A stretch of DNA of 64,000 nucleotides, taken from contig JAVCDE010000024.1 of the NCBI GenBank assembly GCA_030765185.1, positions 251,538 to 315,537 of the forward strand, in the 5' to 3' direction. A model generated the notes under the pieces. It ran no database searches, had not been told where the DNA came from, and saw only the letters and a list, made by a program, of their open reading frames with translations. The translations under genes were made by a program, and so were the position numbers. The stretch is from Candidatus Aceula meridiana. Its GTDB lineage: Bacteria; Omnitrophota; Gorgyraeia; Zapsychrales; Aceulaceae. Below, piece by piece: positions 5,829 through 53,359 of this stretch. How positions within the stretch are numbered: position 1 is the first letter of the stretch; the number at the start of each line of letters is the position of its first letter.

Positions 5829-6041
5829 TTATGCTTTTTTCTTGTCGCTTTTTTTAGGAATAACAAGCCACATGGCCAAATAGCCGACAATACCCCATCC
5901 AATTGTTAAAAGGGCAACCAGAACAAATAAAAGACGAAAAAGCGTCGCGTCTTTTTCAAAATATTCTGCTATGCCTCCGCAGACTCCACCGATTTTCTTG
6001 TCTTTCTCTGATAAATAAAGTTTTTTAACCTTTCCTGTCAT
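5829..6041 (-). CDS. pspC: PspC-domain membrane protein
   Basis: [23 protein letters not shown] matches the PspC signature KxLYRSxxDkxIaGVCgGlAeYf; one C-terminal TM helix. Confidence 0.8.
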
Positions 6042-6052
6042 AATATTTTCCC

Positions 6053-7354
<1,302 letters not shown>

Positions 7355-9815: not shown

Positions 9816-12331
9816 TATTTATTCCTTTCGGTTAAACAAATTTTTCTTTTTGAGGCAAAATAACACAGGCCTGAAAAAGCAACAATGACCCCAATTATAA
9901 TAAATGTTATTGGCTTCCACCCGGCTGCCGTATATCCAAACAATACATACGCAACTGCGCAGGCAACAAATAAAGCGATGAGCATGCAATTTGAGCATTT
10001 ACAGCTTAACCGCTTATCGCTTTCTTCAAAAATCCATGCCGGTCGAAATGAAACAATTGCCGGCAAGATAAATAATGTTGCGATAGATGAGACCGCCATA
10101 ATCGCAAACATAAAAAATCCAACAGTTTTATAAGGAACTAACGGAGCTGCCAAAAGTGGCAAAAATCCGATCGCCACCACAAGCGCATTGCGAATAATCG
10201 CACGTCCGGGCCCTGCGAACATTTCTTTAGCAGTTTCCTCCCAGGTCTTCTTTTCATGATAGACCTCGGTAGTCCGTTGAATAAAGTGTATTGCAAAATC
10301 AATCGAGAGCCCCAGAGTTAATGCCGAAAGAACAGCAACCGGCATATCATAATCTTTTCCAAAAAATCCTAAAAGACTATAAATAAAAATAATCGTTACC
10401 GTCAAAGGAATCATAGAAATTAGCGCTTTTATCGGTGAACGGAACAAAAAGAGCATCATAAAAAGAACAATGACAAAACTTCCTAAGAAATTCTTAAGCA
10501 TACCGACAACCATATTATTTTGCCAAATAACATTAATATAAGTCAAGCCTGCCCAATGGGACGTCAAAGGATAAGGCGGTGGGTTATCCTTAATATACTG
10601 GCGGATATCTTTGACAACAGCATCCATGTCTTTGTTATCCCCGCTCTTTAATTGAACCCAGATATTCAGCTTAGAATAATTCGGTGTTGTCATATGCCAA
10701 AGATCATCAGGCTTATGTGAATTCTCAAAAGAAATCAAGCACTGAGCTACGGCCTGCTTCGTTTTTGGAATAATATTATTTATCCTGTCTCCTCCTAAAA
10801 GCTCGTAATAAATTTTCTTGATGATATCCGCAAGCGACGTGGTCTTGCCAACATAGCCGGTTTCCATCAAATTGCTTTGAAGCTTTTCAACATAATGGAG
10901 CATCTTTGGCTGGATAAAAATTTCATCGTCTTTATTCTCAGCTTCTAAAACAAAATAGGCCTCATACGTTCCGGCAAAATGCTCATTTAGAACCTTATCC
11001 GCCACACGAATAGGATGCTTCGCCTCAAACCAGCGCACCGGATTGTCATTAACCTGAATGTGGCTAATACCATAAAACGAGATCACAACTAAAACAACCG
11101 TAACAGCCAAAACCGGCTTGAAGTGTCGAGTTGCGACAATTTTAATAATTCGTAAAACCTTATCAAGAAAAACAGTCTTCTCTTTCTTGTCTGCATGCCC
11201 AAACTTTAAGAAATGCTTAGCATTCATCAGCATCACATAGGCAGGAATCAAAGAAATTGTCAAAACCCAGGCAATCAAAACGCCTAAGCCAACAAAAATA
11301 CCAAAAACCTGAACCGGCGGTATCGGCGAGAACGACAAGGAGAAAAACCCAACCGCAGATGTGAGCGATGTAAAAAGCATCGGAGAAAAAAGCTCATCTA
11401 AAACAAACCGCATTGTTTTTTGCTTATCATTAAAAAGATGATATTTGTCAAAAAACTCACTTAGAATATGTACAGAATCTAAAACGGCTATAGGCATTAA
11501 AAAGATTGGAATCATCGAACTCATGATATGAACCGGAAAACCAAATCCGATTAAAAGCCCCATGGTCACTACTACTGTAGCCATCGCCACTAGCATAGGC
11601 GCCACAATTAATGAAACGGATTTAAAGAAAAACCACATTAAAAGAAAAATAACTAATCCTGCCAAAGGCGCGGAAATTGCCATCTGCTTAAACATTTCAA
11701 CGCCAAACTGGTCATTGGCAATCGGCAAGCCTGTATAATGAAATTCCTCTTCACCAGGGTATTTTTCGACAATCTTCTGAATTGCCTGCTTCACTTCATA
11801 GCTTATGTCCTTTTTCTCAATGGGGATATAAAGCGCTAAAGCCTTACCGTCTTCAGAAACAAGACTTCCGTGAAACATGGGATTGTCTTGCGCTTCATCG
11901 CGAACCAAAAGAGCCTCCTGTTGATTCTTGGGAGGAGCCTCCATCAACCAATTAAACCTTACCGTACCAACACCGGCTTGCTGAATATTGTCTTTTGTGG
12001 ACGGAGCAATAATCTCTGAAGCAATTACACCATCAACTTTCTTAATTTCTTCGGTAATGTTATAAATCTTTGTTAAAGTCTCAATATTAAAAACGCCGTT
12101 CGGATCTTCATTATTTATAACGCCGATAACAACAAGGTCGTATATCGCAAATTCTTTTTTCATCTCTCGGTTAAAAACACGCACCGGTGCATCAGAGGGA
12201 AGCATATTTTCTGGGTCTGTATCAACTTTGATGCGCGGATATTGAATAAGCGCAAGAATTGCAAAAGCCGCAATAATCCAAATAAGAACTTTAGGCTTAC
12301 GGATAGAAAATTCAACAAATCTTTTAATCAT
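9815..12331 (-). CDS. MMPL/RND-superfamily exporter (HpnN-like, 12 TM with two large periplasmic loops)
   Basis: 838 aa. Two repeated 6-TM bundles with SSD-like hydrophobic cores (PMLVAMATVVVTMGLL..., LSIDFAIHFI...). Confidence 0.8.
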   Translation of the reverse strand: MIKRFVEFSIRKPKVLIWIIAAFAILALIQYPRIKVDTDPENMLPSDAPVRVFNREMKKEFAIYDLVVIGVINNEDPNGVFNIETLTKIYNITEEIKKVDGVIASEIIAPSTKDNIQQAGVGTVRFNWLMEAPPKNQQEALLVRDEAQDNPMFHGSLVSEDGKALALYIPIEKKDISYEVKQAIQKIVEKYPGEEEFHYTGLPIANDQFGVEMFKQMAISAPLAGLVIFLLMWFFFKSVSLIVAPMLVAMATVVVTMGLLIGFGFPVHIMSSMIPIFLMPIAVLDSVHILSEFFDKYHLFNDKQKTMRFVLDELFSPMLFTSLTSAVGFFSLSFSPIPPVQVFGIFVGLGVLIAWVLTISLIPAYVMLMNAKHFLKFGHADKKEKTVFLDKVLRIIKIVATRHFKPVLAVTVVLVVISFYGISHIQVNDNPVRWFEAKHPIRVADKVLNEHFAGTYEAYFVLEAENKDDEIFIQPKMLHYVEKLQSNLMETGYVGKTTSLADIIKKIYYELLGGDRINNIIPKTKQAVAQCLISFENSHKPDDLWHMTTPNYSKLNIWVQLKSGDNKDMDAVVKDIRQYIKDNPPPYPLTSHWAGLTYINVIWQNNMVVGMLKNFLGSFVIVLFMMLFLFRSPIKALISMIPLTVTIIFIYSLLGFFGKDYDMPVAVLSALTLGLSIDFAIHFIQRTTEVYHEKKTWEETAKEMFAGPGRAIIRNALVVAIGFLPLLAAPLVPYKTVGFFMFAIMAVSSIATLFILPAIVSFRPAWIFEESDKRLSCKCSNCMLIALFVACAVAYVLFGYTAAGWKPITFIIIGVIVAFSGLCYFASKRKICLTERNK

Positions 12332-12343
12332 TTTTATCTCCTT

Positions 12344-14050
12344 CTAACTGACAGTCTTTGTTACTTTTGGAAAAATTTTCTCAAACGGCCACATAAGAAT
12401 TCCACCATCCATAACCTTAACATTTGAAAATCCTGCAGATTTTAAAATCAAAGCTGCTTCATAACCACGTAAAGAAATCTTACAAAAAGTAATAATTTCC
12501 TTATCCTTAGGAAGCTCATCAACTCTGCGTCGAAGCTGCCCCAAAGGAACAAGAATAGAATCTTTAATTTTTGCCTCATTGTATTCTTCAGGACTTCTGA
12601 CGTCAAGAAGAACAATATCTTCACCCTTGATAATCTTCTCGTAAACTTCATCAGGAGTCAACGATTCATACATTCCGTCAATCTTATTACGGGCAATGTT
12701 AGCTGCCGTAAGAATATTATCCATAGCCGGAGAATAAGGCGGAGCATAACATAAATCCAAGTTTGCGATTTGATCAACTGTCATCTTTGCCGTAATAGCT
12801 GTTGCCGCTACGTCGATTCTCTTATCGACAGCTCCCGGCCCAATCGCTTGAAAGCCTAAAAGACGCCGACTCTGGCGGTCAGCGATTAATTTTATAAAAA
12901 TAAGTTTTGCGCCAGGATAAAAATGTGCCTTATCCGGAGCAGGACTTAAAAGTGAAACAACGTCAAACCCTTCTTCTTTGGCCTGCGCCTCGCCCAAACC
13001 TGTACGCCCAACATTAAAGTCAAAAACCTTGCAAACTGTTGAGCCTAAGACCCCCGGAAAACTATCATGCCTCCCACAAATATTATTCGCAGCAACACGT
13101 CCTTGTTTGTTTGCGGTTGACCCTAAAGGGACAAAGCAGGGTTTTTCTGTCAATAAATCGATAGATTCGACACAATCACCAACCGCAAAAATATTTGGAT
13201 CACTAGTTTGCATTTGCTCATTGACAGTAATCCCTCCTGTTTTTCCAACTTTAAGCCCACTTTCTTTTGCTAAAACAGTATTCGGTCTAACTCCAACTGC
13301 ACTAATAACAAAATCACACGCTATTCTTCCTTTGTCCGTCATCACAGCGCTGACTTCTTCACTCCCTTCGATAGCCTGAACAGTTGTCTGGGTCTTAATC
13401 TTAACACCTTTGGCCTCCATATGCCTGACGACATGAACTGCCAGCTCTTTATCCAACATAGGAAGAATTTGAGGAAGTCTCTCAATAATTGTAACGCGGG
13501 CACCTCTCTCAGCTAAAGCTTCTGTCACTTCAACACCAATTAAACCTCCTCCAATAATCACAACGTCTTTAGCCCCACCGTCGTCTAACATAGCTTTAAT
13601 ACCCTCAGCATCTTCGATGGTTTGCAGCGTAAAAACATTCTTAAGCTTTATACCTTCGACCGGTGGAATAACAGGACGAGCTCCTGTGGCAAGGACAAGC
13701 GTGTCATAGGAAATTTCTTTTTCCTCTAAGGTCTCATAATCCTTAACGAAAATTTTCTTTAATTTAGCATTAACTGATATAACTTCCATTTTATTAAAAA
13801 CTTTAACGTTCTTAACTTCATGAAAAAAGATGGGATCACGTACTGCCCCGATAGCCGTGCACATTAATTCTTTCTGATCTTCAACTACCCCTGAAATATA
13901 ATAAGGAAGGCCGCACCCGGCATAAGAAAGAAATGTCCCCTTTTCAATAAGTATAATTTCTGCATCCGGACAAAGTCTGCTAATCTTTGATCCAACTTTT
14001 GGCCCAGCAGCAACGCCCCCGATAATTACAATTTTTTTCTTTTGGCTCAT
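12344..14050 (-). CDS. CoA-disulfide reductase / NAD(P)H persulfide reductase with C-terminal rhodanese domain (CoADR-RHD)
   Basis: N-terminal IVIIGGVAAGPKVGSK FAD fold; second Rossmann VVIIGGGLIGVEVTEAL; C-terminal rhodanese DVRSPEEY...ITFCKISLRG with active-site Cys. Confidence 0.85.
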   Translation of the reverse strand: MSQKKKIVIIGGVAAGPKVGSKISRLCPDAEIILIEKGTFLSYAGCGLPYYISGVVEDQKELMCTAIGAVRDPIFFHEVKNVKVFNKMEVISVNAKLKKIFVKDYETLEEKEISYDTLVLATGARPVIPPVEGIKLKNVFTLQTIEDAEGIKAMLDDGGAKDVVIIGGGLIGVEVTEALAERGARVTIIERLPQILPMLDKELAVHVVRHMEAKGVKIKTQTTVQAIEGSEEVSAVMTDKGRIACDFVISAVGVRPNTVLAKESGLKVGKTGGITVNEQMQTSDPNIFAVGDCVESIDLLTEKPCFVPLGSTANKQGRVAANNICGRHDSFPGVLGSTVCKVFDFNVGRTGLGEAQAKEEGFDVVSLLSPAPDKAHFYPGAKLIFIKLIADRQSRRLLGFQAIGPGAVDKRIDVAATAITAKMTVDQIANLDLCYAPPYSPAMDNILTAANIARNKIDGMYESLTPDEVYEKIIKGEDIVLLDVRSPEEYNEAKIKDSILVPLGQLRRRVDELPKDKEIITFCKISLRGYEAALILKSAGFSNVKVMDGGILMWPFEKIFPKVTKTVS

Positions 14051-39211: not shown

Positions 39212-41653
39212 CTACACCCTAGCGCCCAATGGAAAAGTTACAAAAAAAGTTGTCCCTTTGCCAATCTCACTTTTGACAGAAATTTCTCCGCTGTGCCGCT
39301 CCATAATCTTATAAGCGGTACTTAACCCTAAGCCTGTCCCTTTGCCTTGTTCTTTGGTTGTAAAAAATGGATCGAAAATCCTTTTTTGAGCTTGCTCAGA
39401 AATTCCGCTGCCTGTATCAGAGATCTCAACGACAGCCTTCTGTTCGCTTATTTTTGTTTTGATCATAATCGTTCCAGATTCTTCAATAGAATCAACGGCG
39501 TTGGAAATAATATTAAAAACCACTTGGCCTATAAGGATATCGTTTCCTTTAATCAATATTCTTTCATTAGCATACTGACTCACAAATTCGATCTCTTTAT
39601 TTTTACAAGATTGCTTTACCATAAAAATAACGCCATCTAAAGACTTGTGAATATCAACGTCACTGCGTTTTTCTTCCGAAGACCTTGCAAATTCTAAAAG
39701 CTCTTTGACAACCCGATTAGCCCTATTTGCGGCATCCACAATAAGATCAAAATGTTTTTTTGTTTCCTCGCTAAACCCTTTCTCCTCATCCTTAATCAAA
39801 TCTGCACTTAATAAAATAATGGCTAAAGGATTTTTAACCTGATGCGCCACGCCCGCCGACAGTTGGCCGACAGCTGCCATTTTTTCGCTCTGCAAAAGTT
39901 GATCTTGCGCCTCTCTAAGCTCTTTATTTGTTTCTTGCATATCGCGAAGCATATTTTTTAAAGCCCTCTCGCTGTCGTACAATTCTTTATTCGCTCTTGC
40001 TAGCTCCTTCTCTGATTTCTTTTCTTCTGTCAAATCTCTCCAAAGGCAATGGAGCAAGGTTTTACCTTTATAGGAAACAGGGGTAAGCGAAACCTCAAGA
40101 GGAAAATCTTCACCTGTTTTCTTACGATGCGTCCATTCAAACCGATGAAACCCACTCTCAAAGGCAATCCGCATCATCTCATTGGCTTTTTCAAAGGACT
40201 TTTGGCCATCAGGCTGGTTAGGCGGTGACAATTCCGAAGGATGGGTCATCAAAAAATCCTCGCGGGTGGAATATCCAAGCATCCGCGCCGTAGCTTCATT
40301 GGCATCTACAAACTTCTCAGAATCAATCAGAAGAATAGCATCCTGTGCAGAATGCAAAACATCCATAAAACGTTTTTCGCTCTGGTAAAAATCTTCCTGG
40401 GCTTTTTTACGTTGCTCTATTTCTTTTTGTAGATCATCACGCGAAACAGTAACTCCTTTTAAGTCCACCACCATCTGATTAAATGATTGCGCAAGTTCTC
40501 CAATCTCACCTTTTGGATCAATATCTATTTTTACGCCCAAATTGCCTTTTCCGATTTGAGCTGTTGCAGCTTTCATCTTTGAGATAGCACGAACCAAGGG
40601 GAGAAACATAAACAATCCAACGCCAACAACTAATGCCAAAACAACAAAAGCTGCCTTTAAAAGAGTGTCTCTCAGCTCCTTAATTGGTAAAAATATTTCC
40701 TTCGCATCATATTCCATGATTAAAACCCAGCCGAGGCCTTTAAACTTTCGATAGCCTCTTGAATGTGCATGAGCAAATAATTTGACTTTATGGTCTACGC
40801 TATCCTCTTTAACTTCCCATAAAACATGCTGTTTGCCCTCCGCATGTCCGAAGATTGAATCAAGGGGATGCAAAGAATTCTCGCCAAGAAACTTTTTGGC
40901 GTTGTTATAAATTATCCTTCCCTCTTTAGAAACTAGTTCAACGCCAAGGCTTTTGCTCTTAATATTCTTTTTTGATTCTTCAATGATTTGCCCAACTCCT
41001 TCTAGATTCTCGACTGCTTTGATTATCCCTAAAAAATTTCCGTTTTCGTCACTAATCCTTACGCACAAATCAATAGAAAAAAAACCAGAACTCTCATCGT
41101 ATCCAATATCGCTCACATAGGATCCTTCTTCCTTGGCTTGGGTCCACCACTGTTCATCCGCCTGATAATAATCTGATGTCTTGTCTGTTTGCGCAATATT
41201 GACCCCATATTTATTTGTAACAATAATCTCGCCAAAAACAGGATAACCATACCTCTCTTTTTGAAAATCTAGAAGAACTCTTAAATTTTGGGATAACGGA
41301 GTGTTGATTATTTTTTCCATAAAAGGGGTTATCGTCTCTTTTTTTTCTGAAGCCCACGCCTTGTCGTTCTCAAGAATATAATCTTGTTTTTTTTCAATCT
41401 TGCTAAAAGCGTCATTCTCTTTTTGGAGCATCCTTTTTAAGAATAAATCTTCAAAGTACAGCGATACCTCCTCAAGCCTAAAATAAATCAGTTGATCAAT
41501 CTTGTCCAATGCCTGCTGGGCAATGACCGCAGAATTCTGTCCGATAGACTCTTGTAAAGTTGTTTGGCTTTTACGAAGAGCAAAAAATCCTCCTGTTGTT
41601 CCTAACAAGACGATTAAAAAAAGCATAAGAATTAACTTAAAGAGTGCTCTCAC
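39212..41653 (-). CDS. Sensor histidine kinase (dCache-like periplasmic sensor, HAMP, PAS, HisKA, HATPase_c)
   Basis: H-box [15 protein letters not shown]; DTGSGISEQ; [12 protein letters not shown]; 813 aa. Confidence 0.9.
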   Translation of the reverse strand: MRALFKLILMLFLIVLLGTTGGFFALRKSQTTLQESIGQNSAVIAQQALDKIDQLIYFRLEEVSLYFEDLFLKRMLQKENDAFSKIEKKQDYILENDKAWASEKKETITPFMEKIINTPLSQNLRVLLDFQKERYGYPVFGEIIVTNKYGVNIAQTDKTSDYYQADEQWWTQAKEEGSYVSDIGYDESSGFFSIDLCVRISDENGNFLGIIKAVENLEGVGQIIEESKKNIKSKSLGVELVSKEGRIIYNNAKKFLGENSLHPLDSIFGHAEGKQHVLWEVKEDSVDHKVKLFAHAHSRGYRKFKGLGWVLIMEYDAKEIFLPIKELRDTLLKAAFVVLALVVGVGLFMFLPLVRAISKMKAATAQIGKGNLGVKIDIDPKGEIGELAQSFNQMVVDLKGVTVSRDDLQKEIEQRKKAQEDFYQSEKRFMDVLHSAQDAILLIDSEKFVDANEATARMLGYSTREDFLMTHPSELSPPNQPDGQKSFEKANEMMRIAFESGFHRFEWTHRKKTGEDFPLEVSLTPVSYKGKTLLHCLWRDLTEEKKSEKELARANKELYDSERALKNMLRDMQETNKELREAQDQLLQSEKMAAVGQLSAGVAHQVKNPLAIILLSADLIKDEEKGFSEETKKHFDLIVDAANRANRVVKELLEFARSSEEKRSDVDIHKSLDGVIFMVKQSCKNKEIEFVSQYANERILIKGNDILIGQVVFNIISNAVDSIEESGTIMIKTKISEQKAVVEISDTGSGISEQAQKRIFDPFFTTKEQGKGTGLGLSTAYKIMERHSGEISVKSEIGKGTTFFVTFPLGARV

Positions 41654-41698
41654 TTATTTTTTTCCTCTTCTTATATACATTTTCGTTTTATAAAACAT

Positions 41699-42901
41699 CT
41701 ATTCCAAAAAAGACAAATCATACAGGACCTCTCTGCCCAGCTCTTGAGACAAGCTATTAACTTGTTTTTTTAGCTTGACCATCATCTTTTCTCGGTCAAT
41801 TGTTGCTTCTTTAAACTGCTGCAAGTCCTTTAAGTTTTGCTCCAATTCCTGCCTTGACCTGTTGCGATCGGTAATATCATATCCATAAAAATTTACATAC
41901 CCACTTTCTTTAACCGGTGAAACAGTAATTAAGAATACTCTGTCTTCTTCTTCTTCTTCTTCTAAGTTTTTATTTAATTCCAATGATTTTGAAATTATAT
42001 CCTGCCACCTCTCCGGCACAGGTTGCCCAACTCCACACTCCCACTTGCTAAGTAATAACTCCCCTGATTTATTGGAATATAGCACTTTCCCATCTTTATT
42101 AATGCGCATCACTGGATTAGGATTTTCAGAAGGAAAACTCATGAGGTTTTTCATTTCTTCTTCTGCTTTTTCGCGCTCAGTAACGTCCTGGCCTGTGGAA
42201 AGAATTCCCAAAATATTTCCGTCGCTATCTTTCAAGGTCTTGCCATGCCATTCAATAGACCTTAATGAGCCGTCTTTTGTGACAATAGAATTAATATTCC
42301 CTTCGATTGAAATGCCACGAGCTGCTTCTTTAAAAACTTTCGCTATTCTTTCCTTGTCAGACTCTAGAATAAATGTTTGAATCCAGTCTTTTCCAACTAC
42401 TTCTTTTAATGTGTATCCAGAAATCTTTTCCATGTACGGATTAAAATCAAGAATTTTTCCTTCCAAGTCTAAAGTCATAATAATTACTTGTGCAGTTTTA
42501 ATCACTTTTTTTAAAAAATAATGTTCTTTCCGTAAAGACTCCCGCGCCTGCTTGCGCTCAGTAATATTTTTCAAAATAACGACAATTTGCGTCTTTTCTT
42601 CATTTAAAATCGATGAAGATACCTCAAGATCTAGAGTAGTTCCATCTTTGCAGCGATGCTTTGTTTCAAAGCAATCACTCCCTTTTTCCTTAATTAATCG
42701 AATATGATTTTTAATCTCTTCGGGAGTTTCAATAACATCAAAATCAGGAATTTTCAAAGAAAGAACTTCCTCTCTGCTATATCCTGTCATGTTACAATAC
42801 GCAGGATTAACATCAAGAATCTTACCATGTAAATCAACAACCCGAATTCCATCTAGGGAATTATCAAATATTTTCTTGTATTTTTCGTCATGATTTTTCA
42901 T
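41699..42901 (-). CDS. Triple-PAS-domain protein with C-terminal coiled coil, no kinase domain
   Basis: Three PAS S-box repeats (…GYSREEVL…, …GYTLKEVVGKDWIQ…, …) and a coiled-coil tail; 400 aa. Confidence 0.8.
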   Translation of the reverse strand: MKNHDEKYKKIFDNSLDGIRVVDLHGKILDVNPAYCNMTGYSREEVLSLKIPDFDVIETPEEIKNHIRLIKEKGSDCFETKHRCKDGTTLDLEVSSSILNEEKTQIVVILKNITERKQARESLRKEHYFLKKVIKTAQVIIMTLDLEGKILDFNPYMEKISGYTLKEVVGKDWIQTFILESDKERIAKVFKEAARGISIEGNINSIVTKDGSLRSIEWHGKTLKDSDGNILGILSTGQDVTEREKAEEEMKNLMSFPSENPNPVMRINKDGKVLYSNKSGELLLSKWECGVGQPVPERWQDIISKSLELNKNLEEEEEEDRVFLITVSPVKESGYVNFYGYDITDRNRSRQELEQNLKDLQQFKEATIDREKMMVKLKKQVNSLSQELGREVLYDLSFLE

Positions 42902-43217: not shown

Positions 43218-45473
43218 CTATAAGCACAAAAACCTTTTTTGTCTCTTTAAAAAGAAATAAACCCCTACAAAAGCAACAGCAATGCTTACAATATACCTTA
43301 GCGAAGCCAAAGGATGCGAAACGAAAGTCATAACTTGATAGAATACCGTTGCAGCACTCCAAGCCAAAAACAACGAATAAATAACGCTAAAGGCCATCCA
43401 TCTTAAATTGAGCTCTTGATAAATCGCCCCGGCAGTTGCAATGCAGGGAATATAAAGAAGAATAAAAAGAAGATATGCAAAAGCGCCTTTTTGGCCGTCA
43501 AAACGCTTAGTCATGGAATTCTTTAAAGATCGGGAAATCTCCGGAGAGCCGGGTGCCTGCTTTGAAAATGAAAACGGCCATGTAATTTCTTTTAAATTTC
43601 TAAAAATACTTTCAAAAGCCAAAGAAACCTTGCCTGAGAAATTTTCCTTTTTTTCATCAGTAACCTGGTCTGAGTCCAAATTACCATATAAAGAATCGAG
43701 CGTGCCGATAACAGATTCCTTGGCAAAAATCCCTGTAAAAATTCCAACGACCGCAGGCCAATTTTCTTCCTGAATCCCCATAGGCGCAAACAAAACCGTA
43801 ACGGGTCTTGCAATTTTTCCTAAAAAAAGATCTTCAGGTTGTTTGCGCGGCGATCTAACATCTTGCGCAAATCCAAACATGTTTAATATCACAATCACTA
43901 AAAGAATAGCCCGTCCGGCTTTGATGATAAATCCTTTTAGCCTTCCCCATGTATGAATTAATATCCCTTTTAATGTCGGCAGATGATACGGAGGAAGCTC
44001 AAATATAAAACTTGAAGGCTGGCCTTTAAGCGCAGTATTCTTTAATAAAAATGCCGTCATAATGCCGAAAAAAATCCCGATTAAATAAAGCGAGAAAATA
44101 ACGATCCCTCCTATTTTTGGGAAAAAAGCTGCCGCGAATAAAGCATAAACCGGCAAGCGGGCAGCACACGACATAAACGGATTCATCATAACAGCCAATG
44201 CGCGGTCTCTGGCGTTCTCCAGTGTCCGTGTTGCCATAATCGCAGGAACATTGCAGCCAAACCCAATCAGCATTGGAACAAAGGCCTTGCCCGGCAGCCC
44301 CACCGACCGCATTAGTCCATCAGCGACAAAAGCCGCCCGCGCCATATAGCCGGAATCTTCCAAAATCGCCATGCAGAAAAAAATAAAGAATATCGGAGGA
44401 ATAAAAGTAGAAACAGTCTGGAGGCCTCCCCCAATTCCATTGGCAAAAAATGTTATTAAAAGCTGTGGCGCACCAACAACGGTTAAAAGATTTCTTGTGC
44501 CATCCACAAAAATAGCCCCGAAAAGAATCTCAAAAAAATCGATAAAACACCCTCCGAGGTTAATCGTAACCCAAAACATCAAATACATTGTAAGAAGAAA
44601 AAAAGGAATCCCTAAAAATCGATTTAAAACAACTTTGTCAACCGCATCGGAAATATCTCTACGAAAAGAATCTGAGCGCTGAATTGTTTTTTTGCAAACC
44701 GAATGAACAAAACCATAACGGCTATCGGCAATAACAACATCCACGTCTTCGCCAATGATTTCTTTGATGCGTTTACGGCCTAAAGCAATAATCTCTTCTA
44801 GCGAGCCTTCTCCTTGAAATTTTTTTCCGAGGGCATCGCCTTCCAAAATTTTTATCGCCATCCACCGAGGGTCATAAAATGAAAATTCTTTTTTATTTTT
44901 AATATACAAAATAATTTTTTGAAGGGTGTCTTCAGCCTCTTGCGGAAAATAAATATTTACGCTGGACACTTCTTTTTTATCGGCAGATGCCGCAATCGCA
45001 TTTTTAAGAGCATTAATGCCTTCGCCTCTGCTGGCAACAGTGCCGACAACCGGGCAACCTAAGGCCCTTGAGAGTTCTTCAATGTTAATCTGTATTTTCT
45101 TCTGACGTGCCCGGTCCATCATGTTAAGGACCAAAACACATGGGATGCGCATCTCTAGAAGCTGAACGGTAAGATACAAATGCCTCTCAAGGCTTGAGGC
45201 ATCGGCGATGTTAATAACAACATCCGGGCTTTCCTTTAGAATAAAATCTCTAGCAACTTTTTCATCTAACGAAGATGTCAACAAAGAATAAATGCCGGGA
45301 AGGTCTACTACGTGGATATTGCTTTTGCCGTGTTGGTAGCTGCCGGTTTTCTGCTCAACCGTAACACCCGGCCAATTGCCTACGTGCTGTTTTGCGCCGA
45401 CCAACGCATTAAACAGCGACGTCTTACCGCTGTTGGGGTTGCCCAAAATTCCTATTTTTATTTTTTTAGCCAT
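43218..45473 (-). CDS. feoB: Ferrous iron transporter FeoB
   Basis: G-domain GNPNSGKTSLFNALVG...DLPGIYSL plus the polytopic Gate/nucleoside-recognition membrane domain; 751 aa. Confidence 0.95.
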   Translation of the reverse strand: MAKKIKIGILGNPNSGKTSLFNALVGAKQHVGNWPGVTVEQKTGSYQHGKSNIHVVDLPGIYSLLTSSLDEKVARDFILKESPDVVINIADASSLERHLYLTVQLLEMRIPCVLVLNMMDRARQKKIQINIEELSRALGCPVVGTVASRGEGINALKNAIAASADKKEVSSVNIYFPQEAEDTLQKIILYIKNKKEFSFYDPRWMAIKILEGDALGKKFQGEGSLEEIIALGRKRIKEIIGEDVDVVIADSRYGFVHSVCKKTIQRSDSFRRDISDAVDKVVLNRFLGIPFFLLTMYLMFWVTINLGGCFIDFFEILFGAIFVDGTRNLLTVVGAPQLLITFFANGIGGGLQTVSTFIPPIFFIFFCMAILEDSGYMARAAFVADGLMRSVGLPGKAFVPMLIGFGCNVPAIMATRTLENARDRALAVMMNPFMSCAARLPVYALFAAAFFPKIGGIVIFSLYLIGIFFGIMTAFLLKNTALKGQPSSFIFELPPYHLPTLKGILIHTWGRLKGFIIKAGRAILLVIVILNMFGFAQDVRSPRKQPEDLFLGKIARPVTVLFAPMGIQEENWPAVVGIFTGIFAKESVIGTLDSLYGNLDSDQVTDEKKENFSGKVSLAFESIFRNLKEITWPFSFSKQAPGSPEISRSLKNSMTKRFDGQKGAFAYLLFILLYIPCIATAGAIYQELNLRWMAFSVIYSLFLAWSAATVFYQVMTFVSHPLASLRYIVSIAVAFVGVYFFLKRQKRFLCL

Positions 45474-45482
45474 ATGAGAATT

Positions 45483-46175
45483 TTATTCTTCAAAGATAAA
45501 AATATTTTGAGCTTCACCTCGGCCAATGGCCAAACGAGAATCCTTCAGCTCAACAATAAGAGGCCCAAAGTATGAATTCTTGATAATTTTAATGGTGGCG
45601 TTAGGCACAAACCCTAAGTCCATTAACCTTCGCTTTAAATGTAACCCACCCTCAATCTTTGAAAGTTTAACAGTTTTATTTTCAGGGATAAGCGTAATCG
45701 GAACCACTTTTTTGCTGGCCGGATGGCATTCGCCACAAACTCCATAAACTTCAAGCTTATGGAAAAGAGGCCGCGCTCCTTTTTCAAAAATCAAAGAATC
45801 TTGCAGCTTCTCGAGCTGAATATTGCTAAATTCAATAATCTTTTTGCATTTAACGCAAATAAAATGGTCATGGTGTTTGTCCGACCGAAGCGGTTCATAG
45901 CGCTTAAAATCTTCCCCCTCAAATTGAAGATATGCCGCAAAACCAATTTCCGAAAACAGTTGAAGAGCGACATCAACGATTTGATCGCTAACATCAATCC
46001 CCTCGCTTTGCAAGATTTCATGAAACTCTTCAGCAGAGACATGGCTTTTAATAGCGGAAAACTCCGCAACGATCCGAGAGCAGATATCTTGAGGGATATT
46101 CTCTTTTTTATGCAAAAGCTCGCTCAAATGATCCTGAATTTCCTTTTCAATAATCTGAACATCTCCATAGAGCAT
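45483..46175 (-). CDS. Fur-family regulator fused to a C-terminal FeoA (SH3-like) domain
   Basis: HVSAEEFHEIL...FEGEDFKRYE...HHDHFICVKCKKIIEF...YGVCGEC aligns residue-for-residue with E. coli Fur (HHVSAEDLY...HHDHLICLDCGKVIEF...YGHC). C-terminal VKLSKIEGGLHLKRRLMDLGFVPNATIKIIK...LAIGRGEAQNIFI is a canonical FeoA. Confidence 0.8.
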   Translation of the reverse strand: MLYGDVQIIEKEIQDHLSELLHKKENIPQDICSRIVAEFSAIKSHVSAEEFHEILQSEGIDVSDQIVDVALQLFSEIGFAAYLQFEGEDFKRYEPLRSDKHHDHFICVKCKKIIEFSNIQLEKLQDSLIFEKGARPLFHKLEVYGVCGECHPASKKVVPITLIPENKTVKLSKIEGGLHLKRRLMDLGFVPNATIKIIKNSYFGPLIVELKDSRLAIGRGEAQNIFIFEE

Positions 46176-46178
46176 GTA

Positions 46179-46664
46179 TTACCTCTTTTTTGTGCAAGAA
46201 ATAACCTTTCCCTTCTTGCAATACGTTTTAAAATGTGTAAGCCATTGAGGCTCCTGATTCTTAGATTTTTTATCCATAAATTCAATAAGCTTGTAAAATC
46301 GTCCAAAAGTTTTTGGGCTCATCGCATGCTCCATTTTACAGGCATCCTCTGAAGCTATTTTTGAATCAACACCCAAAATTTCACAAATAAACCGCGTCAA
46401 CGTCTTATGACGCTGATAAACACTCTCGGCGAGGGCCGCTCCTTGCTTAGTAAGTTCAACTCCTCCATAGCGCTCGTGTACAACTAACCCTTTTTGAGAC
46501 AACACCCCCAAGGCCTCAGTTACACTTGGTCGTTTTACCTTTAAAAGCGTACTTAAATCAACAGAGCGCACACGCTCGTTTTGCTTTTTTAAGATAGAAA
46601 TCGCCTCTAAATAATCCTGCATTTTTGGGCTCAAATCTTCAATAGACGCTACAATATTATTCAC
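46179..46664 (-). CDS. DtxR/MntR-family metal-dependent repressor (HTH plus dimerisation domains only, no SH3 domain); GTG start
   Basis: MQDYLEAISIL...RVRSVDLSTLLKVKRPSVTEALGVLSQKGLV matches the DtxR N-terminal domain; 161 aa. Confidence 0.85.
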   Translation of the reverse strand: MNNIVASIEDLSPKMQDYLEAISILKKQNERVRSVDLSTLLKVKRPSVTEALGVLSQKGLVVHERYGGVELTKQGAALAESVYQRHKTLTRFICEILGVDSKIASEDACKMEHAMSPKTFGRFYKLIEFMDKKSKNQEPQWLTHFKTYCKKGKVISCTKKR

Positions 46665-46677
46665 AGGAACCCCCCCC

Positions 46678-46720
46678 CTATTTGTTAGGTTAGCCTAACA
46701 AATAGCACCCTCCCTGTCAA
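46678..46720 (-). promoter_or_regulatory. DtxR box (TTAGGTTAGCCTAAC, 15/19 match to consensus TTAGGTTAGCCTAACCTAA) overlapping the -10 of a TTGACA promoter, upstream of dtxR-fur::feoA-feoB
   Basis: 12-bp perfect inverted arms CTATTTGTTAGG/CCTAACAAATAG at 46678-46705. -35 TTGACA (reverse complement) at 46715-46720. Confidence 0.7.
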
Positions 46721-46828: not shown

Positions 46829-46999
46829 ATGACACACAAAATTACAGACAAATGTACTGCCTGCGGTAGCTGCAAGCCAGAATGCCCTGTTGAGGCAATT
46901 TCTGAAGGCGATCCAAAGTACACCATTGACCCAGAAAAGTGTATCGATTGTGGCGCTTGCGTTTCTGTTTGCCCAACAGACGCGATTGAAGCTGAATAA
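46829..46999 (+). CDS. 2x[4Fe-4S] clostridial-type ferredoxin (56 aa; below the ORF-track size cut-off)
   Basis: My own translation gives MTHKITDKCTACGSCKPECPVEAISEGDPKYTIDPEKCIDCGACVSVCPTDAIEAE with two CxxCxxCxxxCP motifs. SD AAAGGA lies 10 nt upstream; a terminator follows. Confidence 0.85.
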   Translation: MTHKITDKCTACGSCKPECPVEAISEGDPKYTIDPEKCIDCGACVSVCPTDAIEAE

Positions 47000-47014: not shown

Positions 47015-47052
47015 AAAAGAGCCCCGTCAAAAGACGGGGCTCTTTTGCTTTC
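47015..47052 (+). terminator. Rho-independent terminator of the ferredoxin gene (probably bidirectional, also serving phoH2)
   Basis: AAAAGAGCCCCGTC / aaaa / GACGGGGCTCTTTT, a 14-bp perfect stem, followed by TGCTTTCTC. Confidence 0.85.
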
Positions 47053-47069: not shown

Positions 47070-48404
47070 CTAAAGTTCTTCTACGGCCAACGATGCAAGT
47101 TCCGACCGTTCACTTTTTGTCAAAAGAATATGCCCAAAAAGCTTATATTTTTTAAGCCTTTCGACGGTATAAGATAATCCGTTAGAATTGGCATCCAAAT
47201 ACGGATTGTCAATCTGGTCTGGGTCTCCGGTCAAAATAATCTTGGTCCCTTCCCCAGCGCGCGAAACAATCGTTTTGACTTCGTGCGGAGTTAAATTCTG
47301 AGCTTCGTCAACAATCATAAACTGATTCGGGATACTTCTTCCGCGAATATACGTTAACGCCTCAACTTCGATTGTGTCAGAATGCATGAGGCCCTCAACC
47401 GTCAAATCGCTTGTCACAACACCTTCTGGTTTTGAAGCTAAAGATGTCTTTAAAATAAAATCCAAATTATCATAAATTGGCTGCATCCAATATGTCAGCT
47501 TCTTTTCTTTGCTTCCTGGCAAATATCCAATATCTTTTCCTAAAGGAATAATCGGCCTTGCCACCAAAAGCCTTTCATAAGACGATTCTTTATGCATAAC
47601 CTTAGAAAGACCACACGCTAAGGCCATTAATGTTTTTCCTGTTCCGGCCTGACCAACTAAAGTCACTAGCTTAATTTTATCGTTAAGCAAAAGATCAAAG
47701 GCAAAGCGCTGTTCCATGTTCATCGGGCGGATCCCCATTGCGGAAAACTCTTCCCGAATAGGAACAAGACTGGTATCTATGCTATGGTAATGACAGATTA
47801 CAGAAGACCCGGAATTATCTTTCGCCCTCGCTAAGACGTGCTCATTCTCAAGAAAAGTATAACCTTTAAGGTCTAGCTTATTCTCTGTATAAAGCTTATT
47901 GACCTCCTCCTTTGGAATGTTAATCTCCCTCCAGCCTTTATAAAGATTAGAATACTCAACTTTTTCTTTTTCATAATCAGAAGATTTAATCCCTAAGGCT
48001 TCTGCCTTAATGCGAGCATTGATATCTTTTGAAATAAAAAAGACCAAGTTTCCTTTTCTCTGCAAAAACCAAGCCACAGCGAGAATTTTGTTATCCGTTA
48101 GCTGCGGGTCCATATCCGGAAGTTTTGATTCCTTAGGGCCAAAGGCAATCATCAAAGTTCCGCCATTAGCCATTTTAGCACCTTTTTTTAAAGCCCCTTT
48201 TTTAATAAGTCCATCGATCTCACGTAAAACTTCTCTTGCATTCATTCCCTTTTTATCAGGGCTGGCTTTAAAGCTATCTAACTCCTCAATAACCATCACC
48301 GGAACAATCACCGTATTATCTGCAAACGAATGGATAGAATGCGGATTATGGAGTAGCACGTTTGTGTCTAAGACAAAACATTTTTTCTTCATGGATTTCC
48401 TCAT
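47070..48404 (-). CDS. phoH: PhoH2: PIN-domain RNase fused to PhoH-like ATPase
   Basis: N-terminal PIN (FVLDTNVLL...VIVPVMVIEELD); P-loop LVTLVGQAGTGKTLMALA; 444 aa. Confidence 0.88.
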   Translation of the reverse strand: MRKSMKKKCFVLDTNVLLHNPHSIHSFADNTVIVPVMVIEELDSFKASPDKKGMNAREVLREIDGLIKKGALKKGAKMANGGTLMIAFGPKESKLPDMDPQLTDNKILAVAWFLQRKGNLVFFISKDINARIKAEALGIKSSDYEKEKVEYSNLYKGWREINIPKEEVNKLYTENKLDLKGYTFLENEHVLARAKDNSGSSVICHYHSIDTSLVPIREEFSAMGIRPMNMEQRFAFDLLLNDKIKLVTLVGQAGTGKTLMALACGLSKVMHKESSYERLLVARPIIPLGKDIGYLPGSKEKKLTYWMQPIYDNLDFILKTSLASKPEGVVTSDLTVEGLMHSDTIEVEALTYIRGRSIPNQFMIVDEAQNLTPHEVKTIVSRAGEGTKIILTGDPDQIDNPYLDANSNGLSYTVERLKKYKLFGHILLTKSERSELASLAVEEL

Positions 48405-50286: not shown

Positions 50287-50958
50287 TTATCTAGCCTTTC
50301 TTAAAATGAATTTATACGCTAGAAGTGTAAATCCAAGGTAAGAAAAGTTATAAACAAAATCTTCTAGAGGAATAGAAATGATACGCAGCCCCCCAATAAA
50401 TTGGGGATTATACTGAACAACCGGGATGCCGGTTAAAATCCCGTTAAAAATTACAAATGGAATATAACAAATCAGGATATATCGCCAAAAATTTAGAGAA
50501 AAAAGAATATTCGGAAAGAATTTAACAGCAATAAAGAAAAATCCGGCCGTTGCGATAAAAGCCAAGGCAGTATAAGCTTGAGCATAACAAGCAAGGGCCA
50601 TTCCCAAAAAGAAAAGAATAACCCCATAAACACGATTTTCTTTAAAAGTAATTATTTTATCTTTCTTAAAATAGTTTATGACTTCATAGACAAAAAGACA
50701 ACTAAACGGCGTGGTGATAAAAAATAGTATTTCCTCTACCGGAAGATTAAAAATTCGCAGATGCCCTACATAGCGGGGATTAAAAGCCCAATGACCGTTG
50801 GCCGTAGCTACCATATCCCAAACAATATACAAAACGCCGACTGTTAGGATAGAAAAAAAGACCGCTGGCCACCTTTTAACATACCGGACCCGACTTTCGA
50901 AGGACAACAAAAGCGGAATACTAATAATAAAAATATTTAAAGAGAGATAAAAACTCAT
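50287..50958 (-). CDS. Lycopene cyclase domain protein (fused CrtYc/CrtYd-type, 7 TM)
   Basis: Two repeats of the lycopene-cyclase domain with the NLPVEEILFF and SIPLEDFVY motifs; 223 aa. Confidence 0.7.
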   Translation of the reverse strand: MSFYLSLNIFIISIPLLLSFESRVRYVKRWPAVFFSILTVGVLYIVWDMVATANGHWAFNPRYVGHLRIFNLPVEEILFFITTPFSCLFVYEVINYFKKDKIITFKENRVYGVILFFLGMALACYAQAYTALAFIATAGFFFIAVKFFPNILFSLNFWRYILICYIPFVIFNGILTGIPVVQYNPQFIGGLRIISIPLEDFVYNFSYLGFTLLAYKFILRKAR

Positions 50959-51045
50959 CGTTAAAAACTATTGTAAGTGAACGCTTAAATGTAAGCAAAC
51001 AAATTTTTTCTTGGTTTTTATACCGGCTCCCATTACAATAAATTT

Positions 51046-51933
51046 GTGACAAACAAATCAAAAAAACTTGCTCAAAAAGGTTTTGTCCAAGCTAAAGCTA
51101 TCACGAAACAAGCTTCCCGAACATTTTATTTTGCGTCTTGTTTCTTGCCGAGAAAAAAGCGCCTTGCCGCTTATAGCATTTATGCCATATGCCGCTTAAG
51201 TGATGAAGCCGTTGACGGCCCTCAAGAACAAAAAAAACAATCACTAGAAGATATTCGTCAAAACATTCAGCAGGCCTATGGGCTTATTGAAATCACAGAC
51301 CCCCTTCTTTTTGCATTTCGCGCAACAGTCCAGGCCCATGGAATCCCCAAGAAATATTTTGATGAGTTAATTAGCGGTATGCGGATGGATTTAACTAAAA
51401 CACGTTATCAAAATTTTAACGAACTTTATCCTTATTGCTATAAAGTCGCCGGCGTAATTGGCCTTATTATGCTTAAAGTTTTCGATTATGAAAATATTAT
51501 TGCCGAAAAATACGCTGTAGATTTAGGAGTGGCCATGCAGTTGACGAACATCTTAAGAGATATAAAAGAAGATTGTAGCCGTGGCCGCATCTATTTGCCT
51601 ATCGATGAACTTGCAAAACAAAGAATTCATGATGAAAATATTCAGAACAATATTGTTGATGATAAATTCAAGAATCTAATAAAATTTCAGATAAAACGTG
51701 CCCGCTCTTATTATGTTCAAGCCAGCTATGGTATTGATCTCATTACAGATAAACGCTGTCGCCTTGTGGCCTTCTTGATGCTAGAACTTTATGCGGGAAT
51801 CTTAAAAAAGATAGCAGAAAATAACTACGACGTGTTTAAGCAAAGGGCTTGCGTTCCCTCCAAGCAAAAATTTGCCTTATTACCGGGCTTGATGATCCGG
51901 TTTGCCCGAGGCAAATTCCTTTTTACTGGCTAA
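51046..51933 (+). CDS. crtB: Phytoene synthase (squalene/phytoene synthase family); GTG start
   Basis: YCYKVAGVIGLIML and DLGVAMQLTNILRDIKEDCSRGRIYLP aspartate-rich motifs; 295 aa. Confidence 0.88.
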   Translation: MTNKSKKLAQKGFVQAKAITKQASRTFYFASCFLPRKKRLAAYSIYAICRLSDEAVDGPQEQKKQSLEDIRQNIQQAYGLIEITDPLLFAFRATVQAHGIPKKYFDELISGMRMDLTKTRYQNFNELYPYCYKVAGVIGLIMLKVFDYENIIAEKYAVDLGVAMQLTNILRDIKEDCSRGRIYLPIDELAKQRIHDENIQNNIVDDKFKNLIKFQIKRARSYYVQASYGIDLITDKRCRLVAFLMLELYAGILKKIAENNYDVFKQRACVPSKQKFALLPGLMIRFARGKFLFTG

Positions 51934-53359
51934 TCATATCCGCAACAATTTTTGACGATGCAATCACAACCGGCAGGCCTCCTCCGGGTTGTGTGCTAGC
52001 ACCGACATAATAAATATTTTTATAATTGGCGTCTTGATTGGCAGGCCTAAAAAACGCGCTTTGCATCAAATTGTGAGCCAGGCCAAAGGTTGCGCCATAT
52101 TTGATGTTGTATTGAGTAATAAAGTCTTTAGGATAAAATTTGTGTTCAACTTCAATTAAGTCTTCGATATTCTCGCCTGTCACTTCATTAATTTTTTGAT
52201 AAATAATCTTTTTGAGCTTTTCCTCATAATTCTTGATGTCATCTTCCTTTCCCTTAAGGTTCGAGACTGGAATAAGGATATAGACAATTTCTTTATTCTT
52301 CGGTGCCAAGGATGGGTCCGTTACCGTCGGGACGTGGATATAAAAGGACGGGTCATCGGGCATAATATTTTTCTTAAAAATATCTTCTAAATTCTTATTA
52401 AGGTCATTGGCAAAAAATAAATTATGGTGATCAAGTCCGTTTAGTTTTTTTGATAACCCTAGATACAACAAAAAAACAGAGCAAGAATACCGATAATCCG
52501 GAATCTGCCGTCTAAAAATATTTGTCTGCGCATAAGGAAGGTCCGCGTTGATAACAACCTCATCAAAAACTTGCGGCTGGCCTTGTGCCTGAAGGGCAAC
52601 CCCTTTTCCTCGCGGGTATATGGATCTTATCTCACAATTATAATGAAACACGGCTCCGTTTTTCTTTGCGATTTTCTCAAGAGCTTTCGGAATTTCGTAC
52701 ATCCCTCCCATTGGATGCGCAATTTTCTGTACATGGTCTGAATATGTGATGATGCTGTAAAACCCAGGCGCCTCATAAGGCGAAACCCCCATAAACATAG
52801 CCTCAAAAGTAAAAGCATAACAGAGCTCTTCACTTTTAAAAAACTCTTTGGCGAGCTTCCAGTATGATTTAAAAGGCTCAAGGTCAAACAAAAGCCTCCA
52901 ATGTTTTGGATTCAAAAGCTTTGAAGGTGTAAAGCATTCGTATAAAAGCGGCTCAACGGCTTTATAATACTTTTTAGTTTTCTTAATAAATTCATCAAAG
53001 CCAACAGAGCTGTTGGGTTCAAATTCTTCTATCTCCTGCTTCGTCTTTTCACAGTCTTTATGAACAGTTAAAACTCTTTTGTCAGGATAAAAAATCTTAT
53101 AATTGATATCAAGGACTTTTAAGTTAAGATGGTCTTCAATCTTCTCACCGCAATCATCAAAAACTTCCTTAAAAAAATCCGGCATTAAAACAAACGAAGG
53201 CCCCATATCAAATTTAAAACCCTTATCTTCCAACATGTGACAACGGCCACCGCATTCACCCAACTTCTCAAAAACTTCAACATCATGGCCTCTGCAAGCC
53301 AAACGTGCCGCGGTAGCCAGCCCTCCAACGCCGGCACCAATAACAGCAATCCTTTTCAT
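51923..53359 (-). CDS. crtI: Phytoene desaturase
   Basis: N-terminal IAVIGAGVGGLATAARLACRGHDVEVFEK FAD fold; 478 aa. Convergent 11-nt overlap with crtB. Confidence 0.88.
   Translation of the reverse strand: MKRIAVIGAGVGGLATAARLACRGHDVEVFEKLGECGGRCHMLEDKGFKFDMGPSFVLMPDFFKEVFDDCGEKIEDHLNLKVLDINYKIFYPDKRVLTVHKDCEKTKQEIEEFEPNSSVGFDEFIKKTKKYYKAVEPLLYECFTPSKLLNPKHWRLLFDLEPFKSYWKLAKEFFKSEELCYAFTFEAMFMGVSPYEAPGFYSIITYSDHVQKIAHPMGGMYEIPKALEKIAKKNGAVFHYNCEIRSIYPRGKGVALQAQGQPQVFDEVVINADLPYAQTNIFRRQIPDYRYSCSVFLLYLGLSKKLNGLDHHNLFFANDLNKNLEDIFKKNIMPDDPSFYIHVPTVTDPSLAPKNKEIVYILIPVSNLKGKEDDIKNYEEKLKKIIYQKINEVTGENIEDLIEVEHKFYPKDFITQYNIKYGATFGLAHNLMQSAFFRPANQDANYKNIYYVGASTQPGGGLPVVIASSKIVADMISQ

Follow-up and report, generated by a model that had tools for sequence, protein, structure and literature searches.

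What does a Fur-type metalloregulator do once it has been joined, in a single chain, to FeoA? The question is raised by a gene of Candidatus Aceula meridiana (Omnitrophota), located in a stretch of 64,000 nucleotides (nt) that spans positions 251,538 to 315,537 of contig JAVCDE010000024.1 (assembly GCA_030765185.1, forward strand); this whole stretch is called the window below. In the reading preferred here, which is given a probability of roughly 0.55, the gene would encode a Fur-derived metal sensor that has lost DNA binding and is joined to an FeoA protein-interaction domain. The gene and the parts of its product are as follows (window coordinates).

45483 to 46175, minus strand: fur::feoA fusion gene, 230 amino acids (aa), ATG start.
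45912 to 46175, minus strand: Fur-like N-terminal winged-helix domain, residues 1-88; fold retained, DNA-contact residues gone.
45720 to 45911, minus strand: Fur dimerisation and metal-binding domain, residues 89-152; S1 (Cys4 zinc), S2 and S3 sites intact.
45486 to 45710, minus strand: FeoA (SH3-like) domain, residues 156-230, with matches in Pfam and the PDB.

A preliminary description of the window had placed Fur and FeoA in one open reading frame (ORF), and this was borne out by Pfam, in which both domains scored well above their cut-offs: FUR (PF01475; residues 34-144) reached 64.6 bits (E 1.2e-17; cut-off 23.1), and FeoA (PF04023; residues 159-227) reached 61.3 bits (E 9.2e-17; cut-off 23). 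The protein is identical to MDP8266225.1, an entry from Candidatus Aceula meridiana (Omnitrophota) on a 537,930-bp contig, where it is labelled "transcriptional repressor".

Metal sites and fold of the Fur half

Conservation of the metal ligands was assessed in an alignment of 32 Omnitrophota fusions. Three sets of residues were invariant: H45, E94, H102, H104 and E115, which form the regulatory site linking both domains; H101, D103, E122 and H139, which form a second site; and C107, C110, C147 and C150, whose two CxxC motifs make up the structural Cys4 zinc site. The zinc motifs named in the preliminary description were thereby located as HHDHFICVKC (residues 101-110) and CGEC (residues 147-150). 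The metal sites of the fusion protein were assigned after those of Fur, including the Fur protein of M. gryphiswaldense (MgFur). The MgFur ligands are H33/E81/H88/H90/E101 for the one site and H87/D89/E108/H125 for the other, and all of them are matched in the fusions. The assignments of H33/H90 and E108/H125 were taken from PMC4506495.

An AlphaFold2 model of the fusion protein, built on an alignment of 102 sequences, had a mean predicted local distance difference test score (pLDDT) of 89.9. Residues 1-88 scored above 90 and were modeled as four helices (residues 11-25, 29-40, 48-57 and 64-77) and a beta-wing (residues 80-95). When compared using Foldseek to the holo-Fur structures 2xig, 5nbc and 5fd6, the model gave E 3e-10 and target-normalised TM-scores of 0.70-0.79. 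The protein therefore has the two-domain fold of Fur (2xig, H. pylori; 4rb3, M. gryphiswaldense), together with its Cys4 zinc site and its two regulatory metal sites. With these retained, dimerisation and the binding of Fe2+ (or Mn2+) are expected, i.e. the protein should do both. The dimerisation domain is also more uniform in the fusions than in unfused Fur (entropy 1.13 vs 1.94), and metal sensing appears to be held under strong selection in the fusions.

Loss of the DNA-reading surface

In the co-crystal of MgFur with DNA, Lys15, Tyr56 and Arg57 read the DNA, and Thr17, Gln19, Arg20 and Thr54 hold its backbone (PMC4506495). The substitution R57A abolishes DNA binding by MgFur, and Y56A nearly does so (PMC4506495). 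None of the seven equivalents (K15, T17, Q19, R20, T54, Y56 and R57 in MgFur numbering) is kept in the window protein. The recognition helix, which had been noticed to be divergent from the sequence alone, reads QIVDVALQLF in the fusion and ATVYRVLNQF in Fur.

For comparison, 54 unfused Fur proteins (including those encoded in fur-feoA-feoB operons) were set against 35 Omnitrophota fusions. In the unfused proteins, the position of K15 is basic in 45/54, that of T17 is T/S in 51/54 and that of R20 is R in 49/54; T54 is T in 50/54, Y56 is Y/H/F in 48/54 and R57 is R in 50/54. No DNA-contact position is conserved in the Omnitrophota fusions, in which residue 32 is C/A/S, residue 68 is E/A/D/S and residue 69 is L/V/K/I. 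On a score of five contact residues, 29 of the 35 fusions reached 0/5, and 45 of the 54 unfused proteins reached 5/5. Within the DNA-binding domain, no part is better conserved in unfused Fur than the recognition helix, which is among the least conserved segments in the fusions (entropy 1.71 vs 2.33). On average, this domain carries a net charge of +1.9 in unfused Fur and -5.0 in the fusions. Unlike Fur, the fusion protein has replaced DNA contacts, an acidic N-terminal domain, a hypervariable helix and a C-terminal FeoA domain. From these comparisons, we infer that the Omnitrophota fusions no longer bind DNA in the canonical Fur manner and have kept metal sensing.

These data bear directly on the possibility that the protein is an ordinary DNA-binding, iron-responsive Fur repressor whose FeoA/SH3 domain is merely accessory, as domain 3 is in DtxR/IdeR, and whose divergent helix confers a new operator specificity. 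Consistent with such a repressor are the Fur fold, predicted with high confidence to include the winged helix; the intact metal sites; the wing segment, which is well conserved (entropy 1.32); and the annotation "transcriptional repressor" given by the Prokaryotic Genome Annotation Pipeline (PGAP). Moreover, the canonical TVYR helix is retained in 12 of the 105 fusions from outside Omnitrophota, and those 12 proteins may be ordinary repressors. Against it, all seven contact equivalents are replaced, where in MgFur the loss of R57 or Y56 alone cripples binding, and the domain is acidic. A new specificity would be expected to be conserved; the helix is hypervariable even between proteins that are 60% identical, which disfavors that version of the idea. 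That the protein is an ordinary repressor is therefore considered unlikely, and the label "transcriptional repressor" is probably wrong for most fusion proteins.

The FeoA half and the origin of the fusion

The FeoA domain was modeled as five strands and one helix with pLDDT above 93. Its best match in the PDB was 3e19 (E 7e-8), followed by 2k5i, 2k5l, 2k5f, 3mhx, 7r7b, 2h3j and 2k4y; all eight are FeoA chains of the transporter type, and no DtxR/IdeR SH3 domain was among the PDB matches of the fused domain, even at E <= 10. In its sequence, its predicted fold and its place directly upstream of feoB, the domain corresponds to stand-alone FeoA (PF04023; 3e19, 2k5l, 7r7b). Unlike free FeoA of 75 aa, it would form the C-terminus of a dimeric metal-binding protein, as judged from the sequence. 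A six-frame scan of the 64 kb with hidden Markov models (HMMs) gave no second FeoA domain in the window, and an equally six-frame, sensitive HMM scan gave no other FeoA in L003, L008, L011, L012 or L080.

Unfused fur, feoA and feoB genes stand together in operons of Elusimicrobia (L028), other Omnitrophota (L029, L030), WOR-3 (L033, L035-L037), Saganbacteria (L038), Margulisiibacteriota (L046) and WOR-1 (L047), and in L045. The genes of these operons often overlap, and the helix of their Fur proteins is canonical (GYATVYRTL and similar). No stand-alone FeoA proteins are closer to the fused domain than those of these operons (28-37% identity). Given such operons and such relatives, the simplest origin of the fusion would be the joining of neighboring fur and feoA genes. 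In the proposed course of events, fur and feoA would have fused within a fur-feoA-feoB operon, and the DNA-reading surface would have decayed afterward.

When nearest neighbors were determined on the dimerisation domain alone, the Omnitrophota fusions formed an exclusive group. Fusions with degenerate helices mostly had one another as neighbors, and the 12 with canonical helices had unfused Fur. This split suggests that there were several fusion events, with the DNA-binding surface decaying in established lineages.

The preliminary description had instead proposed a domain swap between the two families of iron regulators, by which the Fur paralogue acquired the SH3 domain of the DtxR gene. The arrangement in the window does invite this idea in that the adjacent DtxR-like protein has no SH3 domain and the Fur-like protein carries an SH3-like one. 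However, the fused domain shows no sequence similarity to the SH3 domains of DtxR/IdeR and is of the transporter type, the two-domain architecture is standard for DtxR/MntR proteins, and the unfused fur-feoA-feoB operons offer a simpler origin. A swap was accordingly set aside as very improbable.

The operon, its promoter and the DtxR-like neighbor

The fusion gene lies between a gene for a DtxR-like protein and feoB, with gaps of 3 nt (dtxR to fusion) and 9 nt (fusion stop to feoB). The remaining features of the operon and its upstream region are listed here.

43218 to 45473, minus strand: feoB, Fe(2+) transporter of 751 aa, long E. coli type (NCBIfam NF007105, 767.7 bits, cut-off 683).
46179 to 46664, minus strand: gene for a two-domain metalloregulator of the DtxR/MntR family, 161 aa (Pfam PF01325 and PF02742).
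46683 to 46700, no strand assigned: operator palindrome TGTTAG-N6-CTAACA, overlapping the -10 hexamer.
46692 to 46697, minus strand: -10 hexamer TAGGCT, weak, after a 17-nt spacer from the -35 hexamer.
46715 to 46720, minus strand: -35 hexamer TTGACA of the operon promoter, read from the sequence.
46829 to 46999, plus strand: gene for a 2x[4Fe-4S] ferredoxin of 56 aa (Pfam Fer4), divergent from the feo operon.

FeoB is a complete protein with the Pfam domains FeoB_N, FeoB_Cyto, two Gate domains and FeoB_C. In the DtxR-like protein, Fe_dep_repress (residues 10-69) and Fe_dep_repr_C (residues 72-134) were found above their Pfam cut-offs, and no FeoA/SH3 match was obtained; the earlier statement that this neighbor has only the helix-turn-helix (HTH) and dimerisation domains was therefore correct. 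Its best matches in NCBIfam and the PDB are two-domain MntR proteins of 139-155 aa. The equivalents of the metal ligands are D17, E20, H86, C109, E112 and H113. The protein shares its architecture and five of six ligand positions with two-domain MntR (B. subtilis 1on1, E. coli 2h09); unlike MntR, it has a cysteine at the sixth ligand position (C109, as DtxR C102), carries an extra C-terminal motif, and has an operator with half-sites like those of DtxR/IdeR.

The extra motif, CPxxxxxW(L/M)xxFxx(F/Y)CK(K/Q)G, follows the dimerisation domain (window 46179-46270), is without a Pfam match, and includes …QEPQWLTHFKTYCKKG…. The same C-terminal extension was found in L008, L010, L011 and L080 and in clusters P0098, P0102 and P0106. 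It could serve as a peptide on which the SH3-like FeoA domain docks.

The layout of the promoter (TTGACA/TTGACT, 17 nt, TAGACT) recurs in L003, L008 and L010. A consensus promoter scan of the sequence did not list the operon promoter, the -10 hexamer of which matches at 3/6 positions; because this hexamer is too weak for such a scan, the assignment of the promoter rests on conservation. The palindrome TGTTAG-N6-CTAACA has a single exact match in the 64-kb window and extends there to CTATTTGTTAGGCTAACCTAACAAATAG, with 12-nt arms, between the -35 hexamer and the ribosome-binding site. It was found exactly upstream of dtxR in L008, L010, L011 and L012, and with one mismatch in L003 and L080; thus, the operator lies over the promoter in 7/7 syntenic loci (the window and six others). 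We take its half-sites, GTTAG and CTAAC, to resemble the DtxR/IdeR box. The classical 19-bp DtxR box was also tried as a conserved motif and was rejected; it was confined to the window and, as a weak match, to L011, and the likeness in the window is partly due to the spacer of this operator.

Neither the window nor any of the loci L001-L013 contained a Fur box at <= 4 mismatches. That the sole conserved palindrome of the promoter is DtxR-like is a further argument against the fusion protein being an ordinary Fur repressor. It is probably the DtxR-like protein, with Fe2+ or Mn2+ as its predicted metal, that binds DNA here and represses the operon. The ferredoxin gene and the operon share the intergenic region that holds the operator, and the same ferredoxin is encoded in L080 and L008; co-regulation of this gene with the feo operon is only a possibility.

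Function of the fusion protein

The preliminary description had suggested that the protein is a metal-sensing partner of the FeoA type and not a DNA binder, and this suggestion is favored by the retention of the metal ligands and the replacement of the DNA contacts. The fusion protein probably acts via protein contacts rather than by DNA binding of the Fur type. Metal bound at the Fur sites would move the vestigial winged helix against the dimerisation domain, as in Fur, and this movement would alter the way in which a partner protein is engaged by the dimer's two FeoA domains. Within the operon of the window, the likeliest such partner would be FeoB, through its N-terminal GTPase domain; in that case, the fusion would act as an FeoA gated by metal and would provide post-translational feedback on the import of ferrous iron. 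The DtxR-like repressor could be a second or alternative target, with the fusion serving as a second sensor or as a trans-acting SH3 domain. The gating of FeoB specifically is advanced only tentatively. Every bacterial Feo operon that has been surveyed contains FeoA or an FeoA domain (PMC8749426), and the contact between FeoA and the N-terminal domain of FeoB (NFeoB) is nucleotide-dependent and slows GTP hydrolysis (PMC8980893).

Two groups of known proteins invite comparison. In the FeoA-FeoB (NFeoAB) fusions of Bacteroides and Firmicutes (PMC8980893), FeoA is likewise naturally tethered, and such fusions are informative on its function; unlike NFeoAB, the window protein has a Fur-like sensor, not the G-domain of FeoB, as the partner of its FeoA domain. 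The three-domain regulators DtxR, IdeR, MtsR and SloR, as well as P. gingivalis MntR with its twin FeoA domains (PMC4805248, PMC6698748), also end in FeoA/SH3-like domains. Unlike in three-domain DtxR, the SH3-like domain of the window protein is on a Fur-type chain and is a transporter-type FeoA by sequence.

The genomic context was examined for 11 Omnitrophota loci. In 7/11, feoB is encoded with the fusion, and dtxR is adjacent in all seven (with a 4-nt overlap in L003). The other four loci have the fusion in tightly packed operons with the order CNNM/CBS, DAO-type oxidoreductase, VIT1 (iron/manganese exporter family), fusion and CaCA exchanger (Na_Ca_ex). These operons are located as follows.

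L001, 3818 to 7659: VIT1/CaCA-context operon.
L004, 2632 to 7697: VIT1/CaCA-context operon.
L079, 4697 to 9665: VIT1/CaCA-context operon.
L006, 1813 to 3528: VIT1/CaCA-context operon.

No shared operator or conserved palindrome was found before the VIT1/CaCA-context operons, which carry a conserved extended -10 promoter, TTTTGGGATAATA. The absence of a conserved operator fits a post-transcriptional role and again speaks against an ordinary repressor. In a neighbor-joining tree of the Omnitrophota fusions, the dtxR/feoB and VIT1/CaCA contexts were only roughly apart, with P0013 as an exception; because the separation is rough, two clean orthologous groups are not claimed. The FeoA-domain invariants L187, G188, N200, P205, R214, A216 and G218 are common to both contexts, which suggests one common partner that would be encoded elsewhere in the genomes with VIT1/CaCA contexts.

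Several observations weigh against the view of the protein as a metal-gated FeoA without DNA binding. The four operons just described (L001, L004, L006 and L079) place the fusion between VIT1 and CaCA, and neither feoB nor dtxR was found within 6-10 kb of it. Fusions of the Desulfobacterales type sit among housekeeping genes and have no adjacent dtxR. A separate FeoA is also encoded in L010, L020 and L077, and a second FeoA domain is present in the same protein in L014; hence the fused domain in these cases need not be the FeoA of FeoB. In L010, an extra E. coli-type feoA gene of 76 aa (1489-1722) lies between the fusion and the feoB gene of the long type, and its product is not similar to the fused domain (no match by tblastn at E < 1e-4 or by blastp at E <= 10); that is, the fused domain is divergent from the E. 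coli-type FeoA found beside this type of FeoB. The case for the loss of DNA binding is built on residues, charge and variability, and a non-canonical mode of DNA binding is possible. Finally, there are the 12 canonical helices outside Omnitrophota.

Some of the same contexts bear on another explanation, according to which the protein is chiefly a co-regulator of the DtxR/MntR-like repressor, the Fur part being a second metal sensor and FeoA a third domain supplied in trans. Evidence in its favor comes from proteins with the DtxR HTH, the DtxR dimerisation domain, FUR and FeoA in one chain. These triple fusions (P0096, P0098, P0102, P0105, P0106 and P0132; clusters at 50% identity) are 389-458 aa in length, and their domain order is that of the two genes in the window; one is from a metagenome-assembled genome (MAG) of Phycisphaerae. 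They look as though a Fur-like module had been placed into a DtxR chain ahead of the SH3 domain. Their Fur helix is non-canonical too, and DNA binding would therefore have to come from the DtxR HTH. Their DtxR part shares its C-terminal motif with the DtxR-like protein of the window. The triple fusions, which occur in other phyla, join both partners in one chain and so support a functional link between the DtxR-like and Fur-FeoA proteins. The adjacency of dtxR in 7/7 loci of the subclade, with the 3-nt gap in the window and the overlap in L003, points in the same direction, as does L077, in which a triple fusion (6001-7302) is followed by oprB and by a separate feoA-feoB pair.

On the other side, the likeness of the FeoA domain is to transporter FeoA rather than to the SH3 domain of DtxR, the VIT1/CaCA and Desulfobacterales contexts have no adjacent dtxR, and a role only in co-regulation would leave the operon of the window without an FeoA for its FeoB. 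As the chief role, co-regulation is doubtful. It overlaps the reading preferred here, i.e. a metal sensor that acts by way of FeoA, and the protein may have a dual role to which co-regulation belongs. One triple fusion is located on a contig of 6.15 Mb.

Distribution of the architecture

A word-indexed search returned FUR plus FeoA in 34 clusters at 90% identity; these proteins are ca. 230 aa in length and 41-83% identical. They originate from NCBI, JGI, ENA and Logan assemblies, and all of the named ones are Omnitrophota. An exhaustive HMMER profile search was carried out against 1.84 billion representatives (clusters at 50% identity). It gave 13,226 Fur-like matches, and 104 clusters had E <= 1e-30. 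The listed proteins were re-sorted using HMMs for each half; 185 sequences were classified (183 that were retrieved, the window protein and E. coli Fur as a reference), 139 of which contained both domains. Of these, 105 are outside the Omnitrophota clade. The fusion is therefore present in at least about 140 clusters, or ca. 1% of the Fur-like clusters. In a scan of one genome per GTDB species, it was found in about 20 species, six of them Omnitrophota; the others are mainly Desulfobacterales/"Deltaproteobacteria" MAGs, plus one WOR-3 and one Actinomycetota MAG. The architecture is rare but recurrent, and the family occurs only in anaerobes that have not been cultured (Omnitrophota, Desulfobacterales, Planctomycetota and others).

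These searches also settled the concern, raised in the preliminary description, that a frameshift or a lost stop codon had created a false fusion by sequencing or assembly error. Nothing was found in favor of such an error: the same 230-aa frame occurs in 34 clusters of independent assemblies, down to 41% identity, and the fusion occurs in at least 105 further clusters. Because the architecture is conserved across independent assemblies, an artefact is excluded for practical purposes. It had also been considered that the architecture might be common and already annotated. It is not common, at ca. 1% of Fur-like clusters; the proteins have been deposited, but only under generic names ("transcriptional repressor", "FeoA domain-containing protein"). 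No paper describing a Fur-FeoA fusion was found in the literature, in which matches to the text "Fur-feoA" concerned the complex of Fur with the feoAB1 operator, and regulator fusions were excluded from the Feo survey of PMC8980893. The family is thus present in databases, is uncharacterised as far as the literature search shows, and is probably mis-annotated. By fold and metal sites, its members are placed in the Fur family, and by their C-terminus they are FeoA proteins; the DNA-reading residues that would mark a Fur regulator were not found.

Variants of the architecture were also encountered. FUR followed by two FeoA domains (323-357 aa) was found in P0040, P0047, P0056, P0057, P0064 and P0082, from "Deltaproteobacteria" MAGs, and in L014 a gene of this kind (9962-10990) lies between a second fur-like gene and feoB. 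In P0134 (L078 1066-2103, from a Ca. Adiutrix sp. MAG), a match to PF12669 precedes Fur-FeoA; it scored 24.1 bits, below the cut-off of 27. On this weak match to an FeoB-associated Cys-rich membrane peptide, P0134 would be a membrane-anchored Fur-like protein.

Implications for FeoA and the Fur family

The role of FeoA for FeoB has "failed to reach a consensus" (PMC8980893). In the fusion, FeoA is joined to a well-understood iron-sensing module from which the DNA surface has apparently been removed and in which the metal ligands have been kept, an arrangement that argues for an output by protein-protein contact. It is conceivable, at somewhat less than even odds, that this is the first Fur-family protein to work without DNA, by Fe2+-gated engagement of FeoA with FeoB together with docking on a DtxR-type repressor. 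If so, FeoA would gain a concrete regulatory role and its debated function a natural handle, transporter activity would be coupled to transcription, and the Fur family would be widened beyond transcription factors. The impact would be mechanistic, not medical, because the family is small and confined to uncultured anaerobes.

Neighboring genes and other observations

Genes for a PAS-domain protein and a PAS/HAMP histidine kinase lie beside the feo operon of the window (39212-42901, minus strand), and large PAS histidine kinases and a response regulator are encoded beside the homologous operon in L080 (1-7021); the feo locus may be conservedly linked to a sensory system. In L080, feoB is followed by feoC (11021-11251) and a gene for an OprB porin (11474-12859).

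A conserved stretch 3' of the Desulfobacterales fusions was considered as a structured RNA and was rejected; it had no Rfam match and is the antisense of a 226-aa ORF. In two Desulfobulbia/"Pseudomonadota" MAGs, the Fur-FeoA gene is followed by a gene for a protein of ca. 580 aa (L025 2475-4211; L026 10779-12536), which by eye resembles the Fe-S enzyme IspH/LytB with a C-terminal extension.

On the far side of the ferredoxin gene, the window encodes a PIN-PhoH fusion protein (PIN_4 plus PhoH; 47070-48404, minus strand), and a strong, bidirectional terminator-like hairpin with a 14-bp stem (47015-47046) separates the two genes. Farther along is a cluster of the carotenoid type (50287-53359), composed of genes for a lycopene cyclase domain protein (50287-50958, minus strand), a phytoene/squalene synthase (51046-51933, plus strand) and a phytoene-desaturase-like amine oxidase (51923-53359, minus strand).

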